DNA of 59,654 nucleotides, filler included, from Sluysia triapertura (taxonomy: Eukaryota): the NCBI GenBank assembly GCA_046118255.1. It is 5 parts of 5 records of this genome, joined end to end, with 100 filler letters (N's around TTAATTAATTAA, not from the genome) between each part and the next. Parts side by side here need not be neighbours in the genome. Positions count along the whole stretch, not along the records: positions 26,490 to 37,487 come from JBJNIA010190308.1; 4 more parts are not named here. One strand, given 5' to 3'. Below the pieces are notes generated by a model. That model was not told the DNA's origin. It made no database searches and was given only the letters and a program-made list of their open reading frames with translations. Below are positions 14,241-51,050 of this stretch, in pieces. The stretch's first letter is position 1. The number at the start of each line of letters is the position of its first letter. The position numbers and the translations under genes are program-made.

Positions 14241-16559
14241 AGAATTCCATAGTATTTGAAATAAGATGGTTACATTGTATGTATACATACAAATAATTTA
14301 GTTGGCGAATAACCGATATATATATGATCCATTTAGTTTTTATTGTCAAAATTCACTAGTTAATCGTCTTATTCAAATTAATAAATTGAAAAACTCAAAA
14401 TAATCATCTGTACACATTGTGATTTTAGTAATTTTAAGAGTTTTAGGAGACTTTAGTAAACAATATTTTGTATTATATTTATTGAAATACACTCAAAGAA
14501 TTGCATATAATATACCTGGATTCATTATAATGGATGAAAATAATTTTAAAATATCTAATTACTAGATGAATTATTATTTTTTATCAAACATATTAACTTG
14601 TACTTTTTCACTTGATATTTAAATTGCCACATTTAGTGGTCTAATCATTGACACATTTCATATTGTATAATTTTTTTCGAAATTACATTTAAAATTTAAA
14701 TAAAACCAATAATTTAATGTAGACTATTCATGAACGGACAAAGAAGCTTTTATTCATCTTTGAATTATTTAATTAATTATTTATATAATAAAAATATTCA
14801 AGTGTTATATAGTCAATGTTCAACTATTATTATTTAATATTAAAAATTAATATTTATTTAATAAATAAAAATTAAACACTAATTAATAGTAATATTTATA
14901 ATTTATAATAAATCCTTTTAAATCATTATATATTAAAATATTGCAATAAGGATAATTAGAGTTTATTCTGTAATAATTGCAATAATAGTAATTATCATCA
15001 TCATCATCATCATCATCATTATCATCAGTAATTTTCAGTAATATACAAGGTTTACTTTAAATGTGGCATATTTCGGACTAAAGAATCCTTAAAAAACCAC
15101 TTAAATATTGCAGACATTAAGGCGGTATAAAAGTTCGATTTTATTAATCATTGGTCTACTTGATGACATTACCTAGATTATTAATAAAGTACATTTTTTA
15201 AAATAATACTAATTTTAATCTATTATTTAATTTAGATAATTATATAGTCCAAGAATTAATCAGTGTTCATCAAATAAATATTTTTAAACTATATTAATTA
15301 TATTTCATAAATTAAAATCATCGTGAGATTGAAAAAAAGAATAATATTTCGAATATTTACATGTAGATCTTTTATTAGCAATGTTAATTCATTTAAATTA
15401 GTAGACAAAATATTTTAGGTATACTTTATGAATTATTTAATGCGAAATTTCAAGTAAAGGTGTCTTGCTTTATGTGTTAAAAATTTTAAATGACATATAT
15501 ATTTCAAATTAACATGTATTTAATGAAAAAAGAAAATAGTTATTAATTTGAATATAAAATGTACATCCAATGGAACAAAAGTAGGTCGAAATATAATTTG
15601 TACGACTTATATTATTTGAAATTGCGGAAACATGAATTATGAAGAAAACAAAAGTTCAAATAAAAATGACAATCATGACTTTCAAAACTGAAATTACGTT
15701 TGGCAGTTTGCAAAATAGTAAAAATATTCACGGAAATGTATAATTAAGAATATGACAAAAGTTTTTAGTATACCTATTATTTTGTACTACAAAATTTGAC
15801 GAATAATTTTAAATGATTGTGACAGATGCGATATGCATGAAGTAATTAAGAGTTATATTTGTAGCTATATGAAAGTTGAGTTTTGTTGGATGGTCCTCAC
15901 TATTTTATAAGGTGGGAATTACAACATAGTACATAGTACAACGTAGGAAATTTAAAAAATTGTTTTGGTGACATTCAATGATTCATCAAAAGAAATTTAA
16001 CAATTACGATATTAAATAAAACAATGAATATGAGCTACTGCCTAGAGATGGCAAGAAATAAAGCACTAAATATTGGGCAATTAATATCACAGAAAGATCA
16101 TGCTTGATTGCATGTGATCGAACAGGTAATATTGAATTCTGATCTTTCATTAATTCAATAAGTAAGTTTACTTAATTTGAAGTCTTACTGAATTTATTAA
16201 TCACATAATCAACACAAATTATTATATTCAATTTTTACTTTTACAATAGTACAATCAATTTAATTATCTACTAATAATTAATAAATTTCAATCTAATACT
16301 AAATTTAAAATTTGATAAGATCAAAAGATTTGAAGTGAATTATATTCAATAATTCATTAATATCTTATATTTCAATTAAAAGAGAACTATACAAATAATA
16401 GTAGTTTACGCATTTAGTACAACAAAATATCCAAACAAAAAATATTCTTCTCAGTACAAATTAGTTCTTTTAGTACAATTTAGATCATGAGGAAATCTAT
16501 TAAAAATTACTTAAAAATAAAATAAAGCAGAAATGTAATAAACCATAAAAAATAAATTA

Positions 16560-17862
16560 AATTAATAATAAAACAAAATAAAAAATATTACCAAAAAGTA
16601 GATCTTATTTCAAAATTATTTTCTTTTGACTTCAAATTCCAAAATATTTCTTTTTATACTTTCTCATCACTCAGTCATTTCTGATTTTTAAAATCTAAAC
16701 AAATCTCTGATTCTCTTAAACAAATCATCACAAAATTCTGTAAGTATTAAACTGACAATATTAACTTTGACAGTTACATGATAAGGTCTGTCAAACTTTA
16801 TTAGATACAGAACATCTATGATCATCTATTATTTACTTCTACTCTTCTCGGTCAATTTTTACTTAAATTATTTCGCACTTTAAAGTAACAACTATTATTG
16901 TTAACATACATAAAAATAATGAATTTAATTTTAGTTTTTAGAATTTAATTTTAGAATTTTTTAATGAAAAATGTTAAAGGTTCTTATTCTCAAGCAAACT
17001 ACTCTACAGATATTTCAAGCTTACTTCTAGATTCTTCTCTTTCATAACAATTATTTCTTATTAAATTCATTTTTTTTCGTCATTCTAAGTATAAAAATTC
17101 AACATTCCATAATTAAGAATTATTTTAAAATTTGACTTTGCTCAATATTTAGGCTTTCCTTGCATGAACTCGGTCAGACCATACCTTCATCGAAAGGTTT
17201 TTTTAAAACAAATGCATACACACTTTCAAATTTAAAGTAGCATTCCATATTCAAACGTTATTCACAAAAACGTACTTTTTCATAATTAAGTTAATTAAGA
17301 TTTTAATTAATTAATCTATTTTTAGACTTAATCTTATTTTATGTTTAAAGGTTTTATTAAGGTTAAAAAGTTAATTAGTGCTTTAAAAGGCACTTAAGGA
17401 GTTCATCTTCACCATTCAGGTTCATTTTTCTATTTCTTTAGGTAATGATTATTATATCAAATTTATCTTTAATTTTAATAACAATGATTTTATTTCTCAA
17501 TTTTTTAAAGGTTTTAACTACTTTATAAGGTTACTCAAATGTCCTAAATTACCTAAGAGATTCTTAAAGGTCAGTAAAGCCTTAAGTAATCTCAAGTTTC
17601 AGAAGTTCAAAGATACCTAATGTCCCTAAATATTTTTCAAGTCCATCTCAAGCCTCAACAAAGTCTCAACACCTTATAATGATATTTGGATTCCAAGGTA
17701 TTCTTCAGCTGTTAACATTATTACAGATGTTTTTATCTTCATGATTCTTACTCCATCAATGTTTTCAATATTTTATCCATCACTTTATGTCAATTCTTCC
17801 TTCATTTTATAGTTCTAAATGTTTCTCACTCATCTCCTGACCCACAGTTGGGCAACCCTACA
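16560..17862 (-). mobile_element. LTR-like dispersed repeat, related to 31919-32971
   Basis: Blocks shared with 32400-32971: ggtctgtcaaact; aacatacataaaaataatgaatttaattt; aaaatttgactttgctcaatatt..ctttccttgcatgaactcg..cttcatcgaaaggt. Both copies end in an equivalent terminus (minus strand TGTAGGG vs TGTTGGG). Left boundary approximate. Confidence 0.6.
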
Positions 17863-18331
17863 AAATGTTTGAATGACTAAGTAAGTAATGGATCAAAAAT
17901 AATTTAGATGGCTAATTAAAAACTGAAATTTATGAAAATAAAGAAGGAAAAATGTCAATCTAGGGATTATAATGCTTTTAGTAATGCATTTACTTTTATA
18001 ATGATAATGTGCTCATAGAAAAATCTGTGATTTTTGGTATATTTTTATTGAAATTTCAAAATAAAATAGCTCCTAATTTAATAATACATTTATGAAGCAT
18101 TAACATCTACTATAAAATAAGTATAACTAATTGAAACAAATGTACCATACTGTACAATAAAATTGGCATACATAAAAAATATATAAATAATATTTATTTA
18201 CTTGCGATATTTTTATTATCAAAACGTTTAAAATGATTACGCAGTCACTTATTATAATTAATTTATACGATTATTTATATTAGTTTTAAAATACGTGACA
18301 TTTGCTTACATTTAATTTTTAAATAAATATT

Positions 18332-18456
18332 ATAAACTTCAGAATGCCAATCATAATCTAAAAAAATGAAAAAGGTAAAAGAAATGGTAAATTCTATGAA
18401 GAAATGAAGTATGAAATGAATACGAATTAATTTATCCAAGTAAATCAACTTAATTA
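18332..18456 (+). repeat. Left copy of a ~125-bp near-identical inverted repeat pair
   Basis: Reverse complement of 22920-23059, which has a short extra insertion. Confidence 0.9.
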
Positions 18457-20269: not shown

Positions 20270-20832
20270 TCTAAAAGAAACCCAGCAGTGACACCATTAC
20301 ATATGAAGAAGCAATTAAAAGAACTTATTTAGTTGATGTCCTTCCGCTCATAATAAATGCTTAGAACTCATTTAGCAAAGAGACTATAATCAACTGTTTT
20401 AGACATGGATTTGATAATTGGAGAGGATATAATACAGATACAATTTCAGTAAATGAAGTACATGAAGCTCTACCGGATTCCAACATGGATGTTTCTGAAA
20501 TATTTGAATGCAATGACTTCCCAATATGTGCAGATTTCAATATTGATGATATGCCTTTCCTTGAACGGGTTGAACATGAGGCAGAGATCGAATTTGCAGA
20601 TGCTGTACATTATTTAAAACAATTTGAAAGAGACTTTCTAGTGCATAAAAACTTGGCACTAAAAAATTTGGATTATCTCAGAAATCAATTGCTATAGACA
20701 GCAAAATAATAGATCTTCAAAAATAACAGAATTTTTTAAAAAATGAATAAATGCTGATATCTTAATTATCTTTTTTAAATGAACAACCAGTTTTTGGGTT
20801 ACCATGGAGTTCATTATCTCAAAAAATTACTG
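20270..20832 (+). mobile_element. pogo/Tigger-type transposase 3' remnant
   Basis: TYLVDVLPLIINA*NSFSKETIINCFRHGF matches the Tigger AW..V...TIxNCF motif. An acidic tail and FADAVHYLKQF helix follow. Ends ...aattactg like a CAGT-type TIR. Confidence 0.65.
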
Positions 20833-22919: not shown

Positions 22920-23059
22920 TAATTAAGTTGATTTACTTGGATAAATTAATTCGCATTCATTTCATACTTTAGTTTTAAATTCTTCATTTCTTCATAGAAT
23001 TTACCATTTCTTTTCCCTTTTTCATTTTTTTAGATTATGATTGGCATTCTGAAGTTTAT
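22920..23059 (-). repeat. Right copy of the inverted repeat pair with 18332-18456
   Basis: Direct sequence comparison. Confidence 0.9.
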
Positions 23060-28932: not shown

Positions 28933-30635
28933 CTGTAATTACAAAGTATCTTTAAATTACAACTTAGTTAATCAATTGAAATATTGTATTCTATATTTAG
29001 ATAAATACTTATTTAAAGGTCATAATTACTATTTTAATTTACTAAATTTTAATTTATTCAACATTTTAGTATCTAAATATTATAATTGAAGTAATTCATT
29101 TTTATTTCAGTAACATTTCGCATAAGCTTATTTGTTTGTGTATAACCTAAGGAGATTATTATTATTATTATCACTATTATTATTATTGTTAGATATTTTC
29201 TAGATTATTGTAACTTTATATTTATCTTACTTACTTTCTGTTGATTGGTACAATTTAAATTCCTTGTTCTTAACTGCATATGTCTAATGTTTATTAATGT
29301 CTTACAAACGTATTGATCTGCAGGTTATTGTTCGCTCATCTCTGATCGAAGAGGAGATAGAAGTGCAATCATGTCTAACACGTTTGAACTCAAATTATTT
29401 CCTTTAATTTGAAATAAAATAAAAATAGGTTAAAATACAATATAAGTTAACTAAAAATTTATTTATTCAAATGGCAAAAATGTTTATGGACACAATTATA
29501 AAACAGTTTATCAAATATAAGACCAATTTAAATAAAAAATACAAATACTGAAAATATAATAACGGATACCATACGTAATTAGGTTATATTAACTTTAAGA
29601 TAAAATATTAAAATAAAATATGCTGATATTAATAAAACTGTTATTATTCACTGTTAAATCAAATATTAATTGTACCTAAGTTAACTTTATAAACTTTTAT
29701 AAACCTTTGTAAAACTTTGTGAATTAAATAATACTGCCCAAGGAATAACAAATAGTGCATAGTAAATCTTGCAGATTTGTAAAGCTTATAAACCTTGTAA
29801 ACCAAATATTGTTTCATGAGTACAAAATAATACATTGTAAACCAAGATTGTTTAATTACACTTGGTTTTTGTTATAGTGATAATGACTTCTTAATTTATA
29901 TAATATGCAAAATATAATTAACTAATTTTCTGAGTACACATGATATGTAATAAACTAATTTTTTTGTTTATGCAGTTTATCATACAATTAATTATTTTTT
30001 AGCTTTTTTATAATGAAAATAATTGCTATTAATTTATTTATCTCAATGTTAGCTTTTATAATGATAGGTCCATTATTTGTTCTATTAATTGTCAGCTTAA
30101 TTATTTTCATTTAAATTTTTTATTTAATTTTAATTTTCAAATAAATGTTATAAATTTTCTATATACACATCTTTTATTAATTTTTTAAACTCTGAACTCT
30201 TTTATATTCTAAGTTTTATAAGGTTCTATATTTCTTCCATGACGTGGAATCTTTGTCCCCAAAATAATTATAACAATAACACGAATAAACATTTACATAA
30301 AAAATAGTAATAAGATGTTTGTAATAACTATAGAAAACATTCACATAATAACACTAAATCAGAATAATATTTATATGATTTCAATTAGTTTATTACTCGA
30401 TGTTATCGTCTTTTAATAAATGAGTTCATAATTCGCATGGGAATTTTGTTTATATAACTTAAAAGTTTTTTAGTTGTGTGCGGCGATGATGTTTTCGATG
30501 GGATGGTGTAAGGGCTAAAGAGAAATTTGGTTGAAGTGCGTTTGGGATGTTTATTTTAAATTTTGGGGTCTGGTGTGAAATATTATCTGTACATTAGTTA
30601 ATTGAAATTTAAAGTAGTCTCTAAGCAATCATGCA

Positions 30636-30800
30636 TTACCCTATTACTTGTGTTCCGCACGTGGGACATTTTGGGTACTTAATATTATCGACGTTGTAGA
30701 GTTTAGACAGATATTTTTAATCACAACTGTAACCACAAAGTGAACATTTAACATAGTAATCTGCAAGTGATTCTAAACAAGTGGGACAAAGTATACTCAT
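30636..30800 (-). pseudogene. Stand-alone RING-finger ORF (54 codons, one internal TAA)
   Basis: MSILCPTCLESLADYYVKCSLCGYSCD*KYLSKLYNVDNIKYPKCPTCGTQVIG*. RING-type Cys spacing; TAC and TAT are each one transition from the expected His (CAC) and Cys (TGT). Confidence 0.65.
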
Positions 30801-31046
30801 AGTTTTAAAATTCGAGGAGAAAATTTGAATTTCAAACATTTTAGTAATTACATAAAAAGATAATAGTTTTTATATATATATGATGTGCCGACTACCCAGA
30901 AGCTGAGATCAGTGGGCTACAAACATCGAGATTATCATTATTATTATTCTAAAACTATATAATTAAACGATTATACATTATGTACTTATGAACAAAATAA
31001 AATAAAATGTTTATTTACAAATGCGTATCATTTTTATAAAGGTATT

Positions 31047-33977
31047 TTATGCGTTGCAGCAGATGATTAGAGGGTGTATAGTGTTAGACATGTAATAGGA
31101 TGTACCACTACATTTTGAAGAGCGCGGATTATATCCAGTCTGATAATTCAGGACGTAGGCCATCCTCATATAACTACAAAGGTATTTCCTATCTAAAATG
31201 TCGGCTTCATTAGAAATTAAATCTGTGGGTAATTCACGACCCTTTGCAACAACTCGAAACATCTAATTGTGTAAGGTGTGGCGGTGTCTCACATTTTGCC
31301 AAACATAAATTTTATCGAGATTTGGGTTACAAAATGTCATTAAACGCATTTGATTTCTTATGGCAGGTTTTTTGTGAATCGTCTTAGACCGAATAGAGAA
31401 TATTATGGAAATTATAGTCCATAAAAATTGTATGCTTATGGCTATTATTAATATTTTTATTAGATTAATAGGGTAAGTACATAGCTTGTCTTCTTTTAAA
31501 TAAGCTGGCTTTGGAGCGACGTTCATGATGTGGTTATGTGTGATAGTTGAGTTTAGAAAATTGCGGAGTGTCTAAATGTTAGATGTGGGTACTTGGCTTA
31601 CTGATCTCGAAATCGTAATTATATAATTATTTTTTGTATCATTATAGTAGAAAAACATATCATTATATCGTAATCTCCTTTCTAGTAGGAGCAATTAAAT
31701 TTTCGAAAGTTCTAGATCCTTGCATTCCGAATCTAAAGGTTCGTTGTTCCACTAAAATGGGTATCCAAATTGATATTTTGTAGTATATTTGCGCCTTTGA
31801 AATGTCCGATAATAATAAGTCAGTAAAATTTAATTTACTTAAACGGAATACCAATATTTTCAATACTTATCAAAATAAATTAAATTACCTCAAATTCTAT
31901 TAGTTTAGTAACGGTAACTGTTCAACCCCAGCAGAAGTTATATTCTTTAATTCAAATTAATAACAAAATCCAATGTTATAATAATTACAAAAATCAAAAA
32001 CAAATATCTAAAGTAAATCTCCGCTTTAACAATAATATAAATGAGTTAACTAGAAACGATAACAATTAAAAGAAAATTAACAATAACTTTAATAACAATA
32101 TTAAGTATACAATAACCAGTTCAAAAAGAAAAACCAGAGGTGACGCAAAAAAAATTAAGATTTGACAATAATAATGCAAAAAATCAAAATCAATTTTTTT
32201 AAAATAAATTTGGCAGAGTGTCTCCCACAATGTTAACTTAGAAATAGCTGAAAAATCAAATAATTAACTTAAAATAAAGCTAACTTATACTAAAATTGTC
32301 CTCCCTGTACAATAAAATTAAAAATAAAATCAAAATTAAAATAAAATTAAATTAAATTAAATTAATAAAAATTACCTAGAGCATGGAAATGAGCAGCATG
32401 AAGAAAATTTGAATTGTGGCTCTGTATTTGTGTTGTGTGCTAAAATTTTTAAAATTTTCATATTGTACTCTTTCATCATCAAATCAATCCTGAGTTTCAC
32501 AATCACACACTCTCTCATACAAATCATCAAAACCTCTTTGAGGATCATACCGACAATAACGACTTTGACAACTACATGGTACGGTCTGTCAAACTCCATT
32601 AGGTACAAAACACAAAAATTTGATTTATTATCAACCATCATTTTGTTTTACTCAAGTCAATATATTTTTACTTCAATTACTTCTCACATTAAAATAACAT
32701 TCAGCAATATTATTAACATACATAAAAATAATGAATTTAATTTCACTTTTCAGAATTTAATTCATTTTCAATTTTTCACAGCCAATTTTCTAAAGAAAAA
32801 TGTTTAAGGTTCTTATTCATTCCATAATTAAGAATTAATTAAAATTTGACTTTGCTCAATATTAAGACTTTCCTTGCATGAACTCGCTTAAACCATATCT
32901 TCATCGAAAGGTCTTTTATAGTATCTGTGTTTCCCACACATTTCCTGATTCACAGTTTGACAATCCCAACAGTATGTGATTTTCTACTACCACTTTTATT
33001 TTGGAGTTGGGACACTTAACGAGGACCACGAATGGTATAATAAACACGAAAGCTTTATGGAATCCGATGTAGGTTGGATTTGTTAATAGTTTGTTACTCT
33101 CTTAATCGTTTCATCCGTCTGTTGAAATTCACTTGTTTTAAGAGAGAACTTAATGAATTGTTGGTTGGTAATTTTATAAGCAAGATTGAAGATTAGTAAT
33201 AGATATATTTCATTGTCGATTAGGTCGTAGTTGCTTGAAATTGACCAATAATTTTGAATTAGGGATACTTACAGTTGTAAGGTTGAAATATTCTACAGAA
33301 ATCGTGATTCGCAAGGATAGGTTGGTATCGCGGTATGAGTATATTGTAATTTCGCGGGTTTTAAGTGAAAAGATTAAATCTTTTTTGGGAGTAAGTGCAC
33401 GTAATGATCGCAAATATCAGTAGATTTTGTACATTACATTCTGGAAAAGTAGAATGTGTAAGTGGTGGATTACCTGAATACGAGGCATTGAAATATTATT
33501 GGTTACTTGACAGTAAGAGGGAGGTAGATTTTCCAACTTTTTCAAATTAATGATAAAAGAATTGGCATCACAAATAAGAGAAAAAAATAAGGACTATCAT
33601 TGTCAAACTGAATAATGATTCGTGTAGTACTACTGAATTAGTAGTTATGTTTATGTTGTAATTGAAATAACGTAACATCCATAACGTAGCATCACTGTGC
33701 AATAACATGTTTATGCTTCATAATTATCGCATAAAATTGAAAACGGTTTGTGATGACATTGATTAAGTGTCGGTAACATGAAGATTAACTTGAAGCGTTA
33801 TTTTTTAGATGAATCGAGAGTAAATTCTTGTTAATTCTTTTAAATTTCGCAGGGTTTTCGATGTTCATAGTTCCAACAAATAAATAGCAATGACAATATT
33901 AAGACATCTTTTATGACTCTGGTGTTGACATAACTTGTGGTTCTATTACTTTGTATCGTGCATATTTTATCTTTCAT
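31047..33977 (-). pseudogene. Decayed env-position ORF: signal-like start, FN3-like repeats, C-terminal TM
   Basis: Start MKDK...VLILSLLFICW. Repeated motifs YFNYNINIT..FSLT, MYKIY..IFSLKT, LRPNRQ*NISIT..KFSLKT, YYKISIW. Many N-x-S/T sites. TM IKILIIAISIQFLWTIISIIFSI followed by basic RSKTIHKK. Interrupted by the insertion at 31919-32971. Confidence 0.5.
31919..32971 (-). mobile_element. Nested solo-LTR-like insertion (TGT...ACA)
   Basis: Begins tgttcaacccc, ends cccaaca. Flanks gtaac/gtatg could be a degenerate 5-bp TSD. Homologous to 16560-17862 with internal deletions. Confidence 0.55.
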
Positions 33978-33979
33978 TT

Positions 33980-35045
33980 AGATCAGAGGTTGTAGGAGAT
34001 TCTATAACAGCCATCTTACACCTTTTGGCATGTACAATTTTGGTTTTCTTAGATTTTTTATTCGATTTTGCTTCTAAATTAGAAGTGGTGGTATTTACGA
34101 CCTCATATGGACCCCTGAATAGTCTATTTAATTTGGGTGACTGTCCTTTTGATATACGGAATCATAAATTAAGACCTTATCGCCAATTCTGAAATTGTAA
34201 GGCTTAGTTTTTATCGTAATATTCTTTCATATTTTCTTGGTTATGTTTTATATTTTGACTAGCCTTAGTCCATGCTTCATTTAATTGGGATTTTAATATT
34301 GCCAAAAAATCAGGAGATTCCATCTACTGCGACTGTGATTCTGACCAATCCAAGTCGACTGGTATACTTCAATATCTACAATACATTAGATAAAAAGATG
34401 TTTCCTTTTAGTTGTATGTACTGCATTTCTGTATGCAAATAAACGCGGTTTTATGTATAGATCCTAATTTGTCTGCTAGAATTTGCTTAGGAATGTAACA
34501 CGTTTATTAGTGTTTTATTAAATCGCTCTATTAGTCCGTCAGTTTGTGGATGATACGGCTAATAATTCTAAAATATTGTGTAACAGAAGCTCATGTTTCG
34601 CTTAAAATTTTTTTCCTCTATCTGTGAGCAGTTTCTTGGGTGTTCCATAGCGATGTAATATTTCTTCGACAAGTAATTGTGCTACCGTTTCTGCTTTCTG
34701 ATTCTGAATAGGAAAAGCTTCAGTCCATCTTATTTGATAGTCTGAAAATATAAGTATGTATTATTTCCTCTGGATGTAGCTGGCAGTGGTCCTAAAATAT
34801 CCATTGCCGTTATTTCCATCGGACTTGTTGGTACTGGCATTGATTGTATATCGTTTCCGCTCCAGTTTTTTTCTTGACACGTATTACACCATTCTTTAAC
34901 ATCATTTCTTAATATTTTTATTCAATTCTTTTTAATGTTTTTGCCGCAGATAAATGTCGTCCTAATTGTCCGTCATGATATTGAATCATTAGAGCGAATT
35001 TTCTTGTGTCTGGTACTACAGTTCGAAATCCGTCTTTGGTCATAT
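33980..35045 (-). pseudogene. Ty3/gypsy integrase (frameshifted)
   Basis: HDGQLGRH..CNTCQ zinc domain, MDILGPLP, RYGTPKKLLTDRG, PYHPQTDGLIERFNKTL, FAYRNAVH and FRGPYEV (GPY/F) motifs. Confidence 0.93.
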
Positions 35046-35199
35046 ATTTTTATAGTTTCTGTTTTGCAGCTAATTCATCAGTTATTTCTTTATTGATAAT
35101 AAGATTTATTATAAATATTAACTTAATGTGTAATTGAACAAACATTGCAATAGAATAAAATAAAAAATATGCCATTTGTAAAAAAAGACTAAAAGGACT

Positions 35200-35660
35200 G
35201 CTACAAGAAGCTGCCATACTGCACTTCCTTCCTTCTTCACGTCTTGCGATCTTTTAGATTTATCCAGAGCGAGCGATGATTTTTCAAAAAAGATTTAACT
35301 TGCGGATTAGAGTTAAATTCTTCCAAAGATTTTCCATTTAAACAGATCGTCATAAAATCCGAAAGATCCAAAAAATCTTATTCATTGAACTAAAAGCTCG
35401 TTTAGCTTCAGTGCTTCTAACTGTGATTGTTTCAAAATGACCTTGGTTTTTTTCAGAATGATGGGAATTTCGATTTGGAATTTTCCAGTCAGTGCATTTT
35501 CTACTAAATTTCTAAAATCATTTATTTTAATTTCATTTTTCAAAATAAAATTCAAAGTTCTTATTCTCTTTTCTCCTTTGGTCGTGGACAGGTAACTTCT
35601 TCCATATTCTATGTTTCAGAATAACATACATTTAAAATGTTCTTCAAGAACAAGGGGCTC
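35200..35660 (-). mobile_element. hAT transposase C-terminal dimerisation-domain remnant
   Basis: TITVRSTEAKRAFSSMNKIF...ICLNGKSLEEFN...HRS matches the hAT TxPVSTAExERxFSxMN...IxLNGP motif. Confidence 0.65.
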
Positions 35661-35813
35661 GCAAATCATAGAATAATTTAACAAAAGGCTCTCGCGAGCT
35701 CCCTTATATTTTCATAAAAGTTATTAAAGTTTATTTAATGAATACTGAATAAATATTCATTAAAGTAACAAAAGAAAATAAAAATGGCATGTCATCATAA
35801 AACAATTTCTAAC

Positions 35814-36742
35814 CCTAATAACGTCAACAACCACACAATACCTTGTTGAGATTCAGTAGCATTGAATTGCATTTTCATATATCTTGGTAAAGAAGCCAAA
35901 AATATAAACAATGAAGTTAATAAACATGGTAATGATAATAAACAAATCATTACATGTGGATCTTTAAGTAGATTTAATAATTTATAAACTAAACTAGATT
36001 TTTTACTAACAAAAACCTCTTTTTCATTATTTATTGTATGCATATCACTTTTAGTAATAGAATTTTTATAAATCCACACGTGATCTAAATGTATTAGTAA
36101 TAGTATCAGAAAAATATTTATAGAAGTAAATGGTACTATGGTTAAAAATGCAACTTGTTGATTGTAATATTCGAACATATAACCGCTGTAAGCAGGTGAT
36201 ACAGAACAACCCAAACATAACATTAAACCAGCAAAACCAAATAATGAAGAGGATGATGATGATGATTTAGTTTGTTGAATATTACGATAAGATATAAATG
36301 CAGCTAAACCAGTATTAAGTGACGATGAAGATACAGCTTCTGAAATCCGCCCAATGAATAACAGTTTGTATCCATCACTTAATCCGTAAATAATTAACGT
36401 GATAGTTTGAAAGATTGCACCAATCAAAATTACATAATATGGACCAATATATTCAATTAATAATCCAAATAAAAATGAACAAAATACTTGTGCTAGATTT
36501 TTGCTAGCATATAAAATTGATAATTTACCGTATTGATATGATTTTGTTAAATTAAAACTATTGTCACTATTATTATTAAAGCTATTATTAATGGAAAAAT
36601 ATATTTCTATTAATTTCGGAAACACCGGTATTACAGAACTTGTTATAAAACCAATCATTGATTTACTAAAAAATATTATTAATATTATCAAGAAAAATTT
36701 TCCACTGAATTTCATTTTTGTCAAAAAAGTACTATAATGAAT
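35814..36742 (-). CDS. MFS transporter, SLC18 (VAChT/VMAT)-like, large exon
   Basis: Multi-TM ORF with VIPVFP, LYASKNLAQ, LIEYIG, YKLLFIGRISEAVSSS and LLKDPHVMIC, all SLC18-like. First ATG at 36715, acceptor-like ttttag ending at 36743, donor gg|gttaga at 35813. Confidence 0.8.
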
Positions 36743-37416
36743 CTAAAAATAAAACTATAAAATTGACCAATAGAAATGCAGAAAGACTGAGTGAAATTTA
36801 TATTGATTTTGTACATCTCTACTGTTAATATTACTTTTATATCTAGTAAGTGTATTTTAAGTTTTATGTTGACAATTTAAAAAATATTTAATAATATTGA
36901 TAACATTAAAATATAATTTCTTAATTAACACAAAATGAAATGCAAATCTTAATCAAAGATTTACCATAGTAAATATAATATCTTTTTGAATTTTTCAATT
37001 TTATATATTGTAATTAATTATTTAAAGAAAAACTGAAAATCTTCAAGACGAAATCTTAAATAGCTTTCAAAACCGAAAATGCATTGAAGTTATATCAAGA
37101 TGCATTAGAAATTTCTTCAGTATGTTTAGTAGGAAATGACTTATAAATCAGGAATTTTCGGACACTTGTTTCACAATGTTCTGGAAATGCAAGTTATGGA
37201 CTTCACATTTTGCTTAAGTCATTTTTCTTCAAAGAATTCTAAAATCCCTATTAACTTGAAATAAAATAACTGTAAAAACTAATGTATCGACAGTACATTA
37301 AACTGTCGGGTCATATAACCTAAAGAAATTCTTATGACAATAAGGATATTAATTAATGAAATAATAAATAATATCGGGGCAGGTCTTAAGCAGCCAATGA
37401 TAATAATAATAATAAT

Positions 37417-48805: not shown

Positions 48806-49130
48806 TTTGCAAGGTTATTATGTTTACACTATATTCAATAAAAGTATAAATAAAATGCTATCCTGGAAAACATTTTACATTTTATCAATATTTATTATAA
48901 TTGATACTGTTATATTATTTATTTTTTCGACGTTAACAAATCTTGTTTATTTATTAAACTTATTAATTGTTTTTTCGTTTTTAATCGTTACAGGCATTAA
49001 GTCTATGTTTATAATAAAAAAATATGTGTCTTAATCTTATTAACTTAATTGTTATTTATTTTCTAAAAATAATTCTAAAGATAAATAAAAATAAAGTTGA
49101 TTTAGAATTTGTAAAATTAAAAATAATATT

Positions 49131-51050
49131 GCCCTCCACACAACTTGTCTTCGTTACCCAGATATCGCTCTCATAACTTCCTTGTGTGATCCATACTATA
49201 AGAACTCCATTATTTTCAAAAGTTACATTCTTGGATACCTCACGGGATGCCCTACGATTTGTGCGGTAATCTATATTAAATCTCATTTTTCTTTACTTGC
49301 CATTGACGTAAATGATGGATCTTCCTACGTGGTTGACCTTCTGCGACACAATCAATCAAGCTACCATTGCGTAGGGAGAGGGCTTTCACAGCGCCTCTGT
49401 TTCTTTCTTGACATTAAAGCCATTACATTTCTCGCAAAGGCACCTTTTCCCTATAAACTCCAGAGTAATTCCTGTGATTGAGGAGTCATGATTTGTGGGT
49501 ATCTGGAAGCCTTAGCTTTGTGTCGCACCCTTATTGACATAGATCCACGAGCAATTCGCTGCTTTTTGAGGCCAGAACCTAATTTCCCTAAAAATTCAAT
49601 CAAATTCCGAATCAACGTCCTGACAGACTTGACCCACAGAGCAAGAATATGGCTGCTGCAGCAGTCCAACATATCTCCCCACCTAAGACGAATTATCAAC
49701 TTCCTCCAAAAGCAATCATCTCTCAGTGGACCAACATTCGCCCAAGCTGTTAAACATACAAGTAAAGCTCCTCATAGGACATCGCCAACATTGAACTAAC
49801 TGGTGATCCCTAAATGGACGAATATTAAAGTCTCGGGGCCTCGGACTGCTAAACCCCCAATCCCTAGGATGCTCAGGAATACCTAAGCCGCCTAACCATA
49901 TAAATAACATAGGTCGTAAGATTGCAACTGTTAAAACATCGAATTCTAAAGTCTCTGGACCTAGTAACAACAACTGATGTAAAGTTATTTTTCAAAAAGT
50001 GACTGAAGGAAAAAACCATTTCGGTACAATAATCTTCAAGTCACACTGACCCTTATTACTAACTATGGTGTGGTGGTACTCATAAACAAATGGCTTCTCT
50101 ACCCATAATCTGATAATTACTATTGATGGGGATACATTCTTCTCTGTAAAACTGAATGCAATTCCTATGGTCACTGAGGAAGCCATCCCTAACCCTAATG
50201 TTAATAATAATGCTACAACCTACTTCTGTGACCCACCACCTCAACCTAGCAGTATCCTTCCGATCCCTTCAAATAACTTAACTACTACTGCTGCTAATCC
50301 ATCGATCTTAAACGGCACACCTCCTGTGATGCCCACTAACAACGATCCAACTGCCCTCTGAACTTCCACCTATCGCCTCCATTGTTGATCCTATTAATAT
50401 TCCGTTACAAACAATTTCTCCTGCAGAGTCTGAGACCTATGAAATTATTAGCTTCCGCAATGAATGTATCTCCACAACTCCTCCTCACATTGTCCCTGCT
50501 GAACCCTAGGTTACTTCAGCCGTCGGAAACGGCATTGATATTGATGATTGCACCACCTATATTTCTTCAACTTCTTGCAATAAGCTGCATGATAATACTC
50601 ACATTATTATCTTTCCTAAGAGAATCATTAAATACTCTCTACTTGACTGTAATATGAAAGGTCTTACTATTAAGAACCGCTCCGATTTCAAGGAAGTCCG
50701 TAGGCATTTTACTACCAAACACAAGTTTACCACCATATTGAGTAATCTTAAAGTAAAATGCACATGTGGAGCAATCAAGACATGGGAATAATTTATCATG
50801 ACCCACATTGAACACACTAACGTCTTCGATAGTGACATTCGTGGTGCAGGTAAAAAAGTCACCGTCCTACCCCTTATACCGCAAGAAAATAAGCAGATCC
50901 TGTGCACGGTCTCATCTCCTATCACTGTTCGGCGTACTTCCTGCGGGATTACTCAAAAGCTTAATCCTAATGATTAAAATAGCCTTAAGCATCACCAACT
51001 TAAGAAGCATAATTTTAAAGGAAATCAAGTAATGGCAGGATCAAAATAAA
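49131..51050 (+). mobile_element. Decayed 5' part of a NeSL-like non-LTR retrotransposon: Ulp1/C48 protease, Pro/Thr linker, C2H2-like zinc fingers
   Basis: GC-richer block. IYIKSHFSLLAIDVNDGSSYVVDLL...QSNSCD*GVMICGYLEAL matches the Ulp1 H-D-Q-C motifs. Later IIIFPKR..LDC..VRRHFTTKH..CTCG..H and SLKHHQLKKH. No RT in the window, so the clade assignment is inferred from domain architecture. Confidence 0.65.

Follow-up and report, generated by a model that had tools for sequence, protein, structure and literature searches.

A decayed Ty3/gypsy copy in Sluysia triapertura points to a likely second membrane protein encoded behind the integrase

A decayed integrase and the frame behind it

We analysed 59,654 nt of DNA from Sluysia triapertura (assembly GCA_046118255.1), a stretch that we call the window and to which all positions and strands refer. 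The part from JBJNIA010190308.1 (26,490–37,487) holds a fragment of a Ty3/gypsy retroelement on the minus strand, and behind its integrase lies a decayed frame that likely encodes a membrane protein. The integrase (34009–35019) has the HHCC motif, DDE core and GPY/F tail of Ty3/gypsy (Metaviridae) integrases in decayed form. Pfam H2C2, rve and rve_3 each matched in a different minus-strand frame, all weakly, and alignment to the integrase of a metagenome relative, locus L001, gave 177 identical residues at 357 aligned positions, with 7 stops and 9 frameshifts. These matches, together with the tree given below, bear out the gypsy integrase that a preliminary description of this DNA had claimed. 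The last integrase frame stops at 33969–33967. We found no gag, protease (PR), reverse transcriptase (RT) or RNase H (RH) in the window by Pfam, pattern and relatives' polyprotein comparisons.

Past the integrase, stops and frameshifts interrupt the N-terminal part of the membrane-protein frame (about 32977–33977, minus), which holds a signal-like stretch and, likely, domains of the beta-sandwich type. It starts with an ATG, in a frame that differs from that of the integrase end. The signal-like segment (33905–33873), about 37 codons past the integrase end motif, is short and hydrophobic, with an 11-mer mean of 2.91. The C-terminal part (31790–31263, minus) runs in one frame with three stops and consists of a Ser/Thr-containing stalk, a transmembrane (TM) helix and a basic tail. 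The helix, at 31454–31398 and followed by basic residues, has a 19-mer hydropathy mean of 2.57 and is the only strong TM segment in an open frame outside the insertion described below. The inserted repeat contains another TM-like end, near 32400, which for that reason was not taken as the membrane anchor of this protein. Three of 300 shuffles were as open as 31790–31263, and we note that this test is weak, as a non-coding control passed it (11/300) whereas the integrase failed (22/300).

Homology searches with the membrane frame were negative in their respective scopes: Pfam gave no match in any single frame, 31790–31263 had no match in the PDB, and the open reading frame (ORF) 31571–31266 had no usable Atlas match. 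Repeats within the frame were mostly not significant, with one of 11 comparisons reaching 2/300 shuffles. Protein-database searches with the post-integrase frame and two integrase frames (word-seeded) and with a 1,114-residue frame (phmmer) returned no match, and these searches are weak because the query frames are decayed and frameshifted. Scans of viral contigs and prokaryotic genomes, and a tblastn search of phages, found no relatives. A decayed membrane ORF with a signal-like start and a C-terminal TM helix is present, as first described, but it has about 505 codons rather than about 600 and is split by an insertion, and its proposed repeated motifs lacked significance in all but one of 11 comparisons.

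The two halves of the frame are separated by a composite repeat of 1.2 kb (31791–32977, minus), which is subtracted from the length just given. We aligned contigs of one public run at 80% likeness or more; the resulting depth sums are not copy numbers. A single contig with a depth of 2,970 (35 letters on its short side) connects 32992 to 31790, and the piece 32977–32318 is part of a very abundant repeat with a second copy at 17868–16511 (68%–91% alike), from which we conclude that the 1.2-kb repeat was inserted into the frame. Its GC content is mostly lower than that of the element. The two repeat copies, 16511–17868 and 32318–32977, are diverged; both start near TGT and have an AT-rich far end, possibly derived from a long terminal repeat (LTR), and no target-site duplication was clear by eye.

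Summed depths indicate that relatives at least 80% alike cover the membrane frame. Contigs of the locus itself had depths of 13–25, compared with 2,500–5,900 over the integrase, 410–713 in the bins of the frame's N-terminal part, and 1,747 and 378 in the bins below 31809. Within and beside the insertion, sums were about 3,100 at 32934–33214, 0.5–1.0 million at 32372–32933 and 3,100–6,600 at 31810–32371. Behind the basic tail, a frame remnant (30950–31262, minus) matched none of the relatives' ORFs, and here the depth was that of a single copy (28 in the bin 30967–31247); sums over 30124–30966 were 65–238. As a separate observation, contigs with a depth of about 670 cover the short piece 30899–30948, and one contig connects 30948 to 30135 via 22 other letters, which hints at one shared repeat or LTR elsewhere.

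Intact relatives in metagenomes

Scanning metagenomes with an in-frame stretch of 52 integrase residues yielded at least 30 loci, from at least 578 pattern matches. The closest among the matches listed were L001, L002 and L003, at 71%, 62% and 61% over the 52 residues, and over the whole integrase these three scored about twice as high as the remaining listed loci. An integrase tree of 30 of the 31 rows (L022 was too short; no named reference element was included) placed the window with L001–L003 in a clade with support 100/100.

The polyproteins of these relatives continue well beyond the integrase. In all three, the reading frame runs on for 400–603 residues with the same layout, consisting of a hydrophobic segment (48, 72 and 83 residues past the integrase in L001, L002 and L003, respectively), an ectodomain, a C-terminal TM helix and a basic tail. 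In less closely related loci, L008 and L011 among them, the integrase frame ends and separate downstream ORFs appear env-like by eye.

The two relatives with a visible 5' part, L001 and L002, also encode a fusion envelope (Monjiviricetes_fusion, Pfam PF24664, E 1e-83 and 1e-90), which sits between the zinc knuckles of gag and the protease. Matches of the relatives' env to glycoprotein B (gB) in the PDB reached only E ~1. Pfam recovered the order PR-RT-RH-integrase (IN) in both, along with weak ubiquitin/UBX matches. The complete polyprotein of L002 has about 3,180 residues, and hydrophobic segments of the L001 polyprotein lie at residues 868, 1430, 2967 and 3253. Two tandem aspartyl-protease-like stretches (Pfam gag-asp_proteas, RVP) occur at about residues 1650–1900 of L001, and one in L002.

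Directly behind the polyprotein, each of the three carries a long ORF (L001 10977–12362, L002 9958–11778, L003 3308–5434). The ORFs following the L001 polyprotein are a likely coiled-coil ORF, judged by reading, one with a weak match to an RNase_T/dnaQ exonuclease (DEDD-type), and one of 87 residues. The long ORF of L003 is related to the exonuclease-like ORF of L001 (E 3e-05), and that of L002 is similar by eye. In L003, about ten 64-nt tandem repeats follow the accessory ORF, and then a motif resembling a primer-binding site (PBS) and a second gag start (5849–6680 and 7344–7748). This gag start resembles the gag of L002 and may mark a tandem or nested second element.

The decayed window frame can be aligned to the L001 extension. 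With frameshifts tolerated (X at breaks), the alignment scored 75, compared with 41±6 and a maximum of 62 among 200 shuffles, and this pairing was the best among 118 one-kilobase window segments (runner-up 58). With lenient gaps, a collinear match extended for about 290 residues and spanned the first domain through the basic patch (102 versus 68±10, maximum 95 of 60 shuffles). Mainly by position and layout, and with a weak sequence match, there is moderate support for reading the frame behind the window integrase as the same gene as the L001 extension.

The extent of this gene can be read in another way. The best L001 alignment places the L001 TM helix and arginine patch on 33180–33097, so the membrane gene might end before the insertion, with two domains, a decayed TM helix at about 33180–33120 and a basic patch near 33100, which would leave 31790–31263 as a separate small TM gene. 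Such a length would fit the two-domain layout of L001. However, 33180–33097 is hydrophobic in no frame, the only strong TM helix in an open frame is the one at 31454, the deep contig connects both frame halves, and another register maps 33359–33131 onto a whole L001 domain, although not significantly. We consider the shorter gene improbable and treat the two halves as one membrane-protein frame.

Predicted fold of the extension

The ectodomain of L001 contains two internal repeats with 30% identity (score 76 versus 26±4.5). AlphaFold2 models of these domains were all-beta, with seven strands in repeat 2. In a Foldseek search with the repeat pair, the top four PDB rows were tandems of fibronectin type III (FN3) domains (E 1e-3 to 3e-3). 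The best VIA-align match of repeat 1 was a fibronectin type III domain (Z 7.6, root-mean-square deviation 2.2, 80 residues). For repeat 2, the best match had a Z of 6.6 (root-mean-square deviation 3.5, 67 residues), and 27 of 50 listed titles named fibronectin or FN domains. Other immunoglobulin (Ig)-like folds came within 1 Z unit of the best matches. The domains of the L001 extension are thus predicted to be FN3/Ig-like sandwiches, in low-confidence models and for L001 only. An FN3-like membrane glycoprotein had been proposed for the window itself; the L001 prediction agrees with it, but the window frame has no FN3 profile match.

A Cys-rich ORF and the 3' end of the fragment

Farther downstream, a 54-codon ORF at 30800–30636 (minus) resembles a RING- or PHD-type zinc finger by pattern, PDB and Pfam comparisons. 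It contains seven cysteines, an incomplete ligand set under both RING and PHD spacing, and its codon 28 is an in-frame stop. A relaxed RING-like pattern, written after the ORF had been seen, occurs once in the window and in none of 3000 shuffles of 30230–35050. The best PDB matches were to the RING of TRIM32, at E 0.08, and to a PHD finger, at E 0.34, and Pfam RING families matched at E 0.24–0.63. The ORF is unlikely to have arisen by chance.

Whether this ORF belongs to the element family is close to an even call, perhaps leaning slightly towards membership. It shares the strand and the GC block of the element (0.29–0.37, outside the insertion and one spacer; GC drops to 0.17–0.22 below 30400), and it occupies the slot used for accessory ORFs in relatives. 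Against linkage, coverage is single-copy just upstream (30967–31247), none of the contigs of the run was shown to bridge the ORF to the element in another copy, neither a clean polypurine tract nor an LTR closes the element behind it, and the RING pattern occurs in none of the 30 loci among the matches listed. An independent origin of the zinc-finger ORF alone has a little less than an even chance.

The proposed 3' cassette therefore survives in part. The small Cys-rich ORF is real, yet it is interrupted by a stop, and the matches above do not separate RING from PHD; an E3 ligase as an accessory gene of the family is so far unsupported, given no RING-like ORF in the three closest relatives and no linking contig. 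The claimed basic ORF (30594–30410, minus) is unsupported as a gene, with 125 of 300 shuffles as open, no Pfam match and an element-like GC content of 0.33. The sequence described as resembling a polypurine tract (PPT) is a purine-rich motif (10/11) at 30250–30260 (minus), where the element-like GC block ends, and not a clean PPT; no run of at least nine purines with at least three G was found in 31300–29500. Neither the 20 largest direct-repeat families, out of 31, nor a BLASTN comparison of 29001–36000 with the window revealed an LTR pair. The truncated window copy is accordingly without the paired LTRs, PBS and PPT that mark complete Ty3/gypsy elements.

Host gene and other features of the window

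The window has a GC content of about 24% and numerous AAT microsatellites, and a Pfam scan identified animal-type genes in it, with HEATR5-like and MFS matches. The host is presumably flatworm-like. MFS_1 matches flank the element on both sides, in minus-strand frames at 36742–35795 and 28967–28503. Because, by sequence reading, a GT at 35813 and an AG at 28933 join the two frames in phase, the element fragment likely lies within a 6.9-kb intron (28933–35813, minus), in sense orientation. The two frames are likely parts of one host transporter gene. No Rfam match was found in 29000–37000.

Directly upstream of the integrase, 35100–35740 (minus) is a coding-like, repeated stretch that is not RNase H. 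None of 300 shuffles was as open in the same weak test, and summed contig depth is 4,000–10,000, dropping to 28–104 in the bins beyond 35744. This stretch includes a hydrophobic segment. It had no convincing match to the L001 or L002 polyproteins, Pfam or Atlas, and an Atlas lead for 35615–35385 was unsupported.

Several other features lie elsewhere in the window. A HEATR5A-like exon is located at 3974–4528 (plus; Pfam E 2e-17), and a frame at 2529–3056 (plus) has a start that is tetraspanin-like by eye, with no tetraspanin match in Pfam. At 10670–11630, a long degenerate trinucleotide array gives open frames rich in Asn/Asp or Ile. An 81-nt inverted repeat (18332–18412 and 22979–23059, 98% complementary, 4.6 kb between arms) encloses a 110-codon frame (20365–20697) that looks like a transposase tail by eye and has no Pfam match. 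Finally, a GC-rich island (0.38–0.40) at 49000–51000 holds several 100-codon frames and is probably another mobile element; Pfam returned nothing at E <0.05 in the four frames scanned.

A likely second surface protein in an env-bearing lineage

On balance, we favour reading the fragment as a decayed, 5'-truncated Ty3/gypsy copy, from a group whose relatives encode env before the protease and in which the post-integrase frame is likely a second membrane protein, predicted to be FN3/Ig-like. From the relatives, we infer an env in the window's own family as well. Since L001 and L002 already encode a fusion env between gag and protease, the FN3-like protein is likely a second surface protein and not an env substitute. 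The preliminary description had envisaged a retrovirus-like lineage with a cell-surface protein and an E3 ligase as accessory genes. A post-integrase membrane extension is indeed found in all three relatives, but as an in-frame continuation of the polyprotein and not as an ORF of its own, and a fusion env precedes the protease in both relatives for which the 5' part can be read. The accompanying expectation that relatives would keep the downstream ORFs holds for the membrane extension (3/3) and fails for the RING ORF (0/3).

Several observations weigh against this reading. The window copy itself has no env. The tree rows were read on the L001 integrase template, and the window branch is long. 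The L001 extension has no significant alignment to those of L002 and L003, so homology of the extension across the clade is argued from its position and layout. Nor was the window frame significantly similar to the L002 and L003 extensions: 8/60 and 11/60 shuffles, respectively, reached its score with strict gaps, and 8/60 and 3/60 with lenient gaps. The pairing with L001 was picked out of 63 comparisons, and two registers of the window frame on L001 are possible. The junction of the two frame halves depends on a single contig, and contig depth is not copy number. With regard to the fold, the models were poor (mean predicted local distance difference test scores of 42 and 59), no Foldseek match in the PDB or the viral libraries had E ≤0.001, and single-domain searches were weaker. 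FN3 sequence profiles in Pfam matched neither the window frames nor the relatives' domains, and a PDB sequence search gave no FN3 match either. No VIA-align Z reached 8, so for L001 we speak of an FN3/Ig-like prediction and not of FN3 membership. The absence of a RING-like ORF from the three closest relatives counts against the zinc finger as part of the family.

A closer variant of the original proposal is that the FN3-like protein is a separate ORF in the env position of an element with no other env, and that a single cassette includes the RING and basic ORFs as fixed accessory genes. The window frame does begin with an ATG in a different frame from the integrase end, all parts lie on one strand in a GC block of 0.29–0.37 down to 30400, and relatives keep accessory ORFs in this 3' slot. 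The frame change proves little, because the integrase alone has 9 frameshifts, and the extension is fused in frame in 3/3 relatives and accompanied by an upstream fusion env in 2/2; in addition, relatives have no RING and the basic ORF is unsupported. We regard this arrangement as quite improbable. It is very improbable that the intron has accumulated nested repeats of unrelated origin and that the post-integrase frames stem from separate insertions or from host fragments that were captured. The 1.2-kb insertion is a proven case of nesting, 35100–35740 and 30948–30899 are likely ones, and relatives' coverage falls to single-copy at 30967–31247, just before the zinc-finger ORF, but the position, layout and weak L001 match of the membrane frame speak against independent insertion.

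If the frame is a second membrane protein, the hydrophobic segments of L001 suggest how it could be made. A single polyprotein would pass through the membrane four times in all. The env ectodomain would enter the lumen by means of an internal signal ahead of env, and the env TM helix would bring PR-RT-RH-IN back to the cytosol. Past IN, another internal signal would then translocate the tandem beta-sandwich domains, with the final TM helix and basic cytosolic tail as an anchor. Cleavage by signal peptidase and the element protease could release a type I surface protein, one-for-one with env. Pol would thus be tethered between two membrane anchors, which makes the implied polyprotein unusual. 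The second surface protein would most likely be an attachment or cell-contact partner of a class III-type fusogen and not itself a fusogen; a block to superinfection or host-receptor mimicry are alternative functions. The 3' slot behind the polyprotein may hold swappable accessory genes, exonuclease-like in L001–L003 and possibly a small RING/PHD zinc finger here, which, if it belongs to the family, would target ubiquitin or chromatin pathways of the host.

Descriptions of env-bearing gypsy elements normally include a single envelope gene, and gB-type fusogens often need a receptor-binding partner. A second, adhesion-like membrane protein behind the integrase would add a component to the cell-to-cell movement of env-bearing gypsy elements, and the extension is a concrete candidate for the receptor-binding partner of gB-type fusogens. 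A bolder version, which we consider doubtful, is a widespread undescribed invertebrate lineage that produces a class III fusogen and an FN3 attachment protein from a four-pass polyprotein and carries a swappable 3' cassette. If true, a retroelement would possess a herpes-like entry machine of two parts, and in this family the cassette would hold a stand-alone mini RING ubiquitin ligase directed against host defences. The window copy itself is dead and is of value for the lineage to which it points.

Comparison with known systems

In herpesviruses, gB acts beside separate attachment glycoproteins. We use this pairing as a functional model only, an analogy that claims no relation to gD or gH/gL in sequence or fold. 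Among retroelements, errantiviruses with a GAG-ENV-POL order and an env of the herpes simplex virus (HSV)/gB type are known from Platyhelminthes, Nematoda and Bryozoa (PMC13524379). They share with L001 and L002 the position of env before pol, and the N-terminal env rows of Schmidtea errantiviruses 1–6 share motifs with the L001 and L002 env, by eye only (PMC13524379). Unlike these errantiviruses, the window copy itself has no env, and its clade is shown only with L001–L003. The terms "fibronectin", "RING", "accessory" and "exonuclease" do not occur in the main text of PMC13524379, and a post-integrase membrane protein is not mentioned in its available text.

Burro (GYPSM1) of planarians is a giant gypsy element with an env encoded in frame between gag and protease, resembling a mononegavirus-type fusion protein (PMC6431247). 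It also has a ubiquitin-like domain between gag and env, accessory ORFs, and ubiquitin- and apoptosis-related cargo (PMC6431247). L001 and L002 are Burro-like in their polyprotein with an in-frame env, weak ubiquitin/UBX matches and accessory ORFs. They differ in size, as the L002 polyprotein has about 3,180 residues compared with 4,873–5,140 in Burro (PMC6431247), and in cargo, as BIR, MATH, BCL2, ankyrin and dUTPase had no Pfam match in L001 (minus its 5' end) or L002. The features that define Burro, a giant ORF1 with BIR/MATH/BCL2/ankyrin cargo in an element of more than 30 kb, are thus not seen in the L002 polyprotein. An FN3-like or TM domain past the integrase is not listed for Burro in the available text of that review (PMC6431247).

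LTR elements of bdelloid rotifers carry swappable 3' ORF3 cargo, including a DEDDy exonuclease and small TM proteins (PMC5408684). The exonuclease-like 3' ORF of L001 (weak RNase_T/dnaQ) and the related ORF of L003 resemble this arrangement. The rotifer env, however, is separate and of the paramyxovirus F type, unlike that of L001 and L002, and the available text of PMC5408684 contains neither "fibronectin" nor "RING". In the literature searched, we found no description of an FN3-like membrane protein past a gypsy integrase or of a RING extra ORF, and prior description is possible. Env before pol and swappable 3' ORFs are therefore already known from other elements; what appears to be new, allowing for a possible earlier description, is the predicted FN3-like membrane protein behind the integrase.

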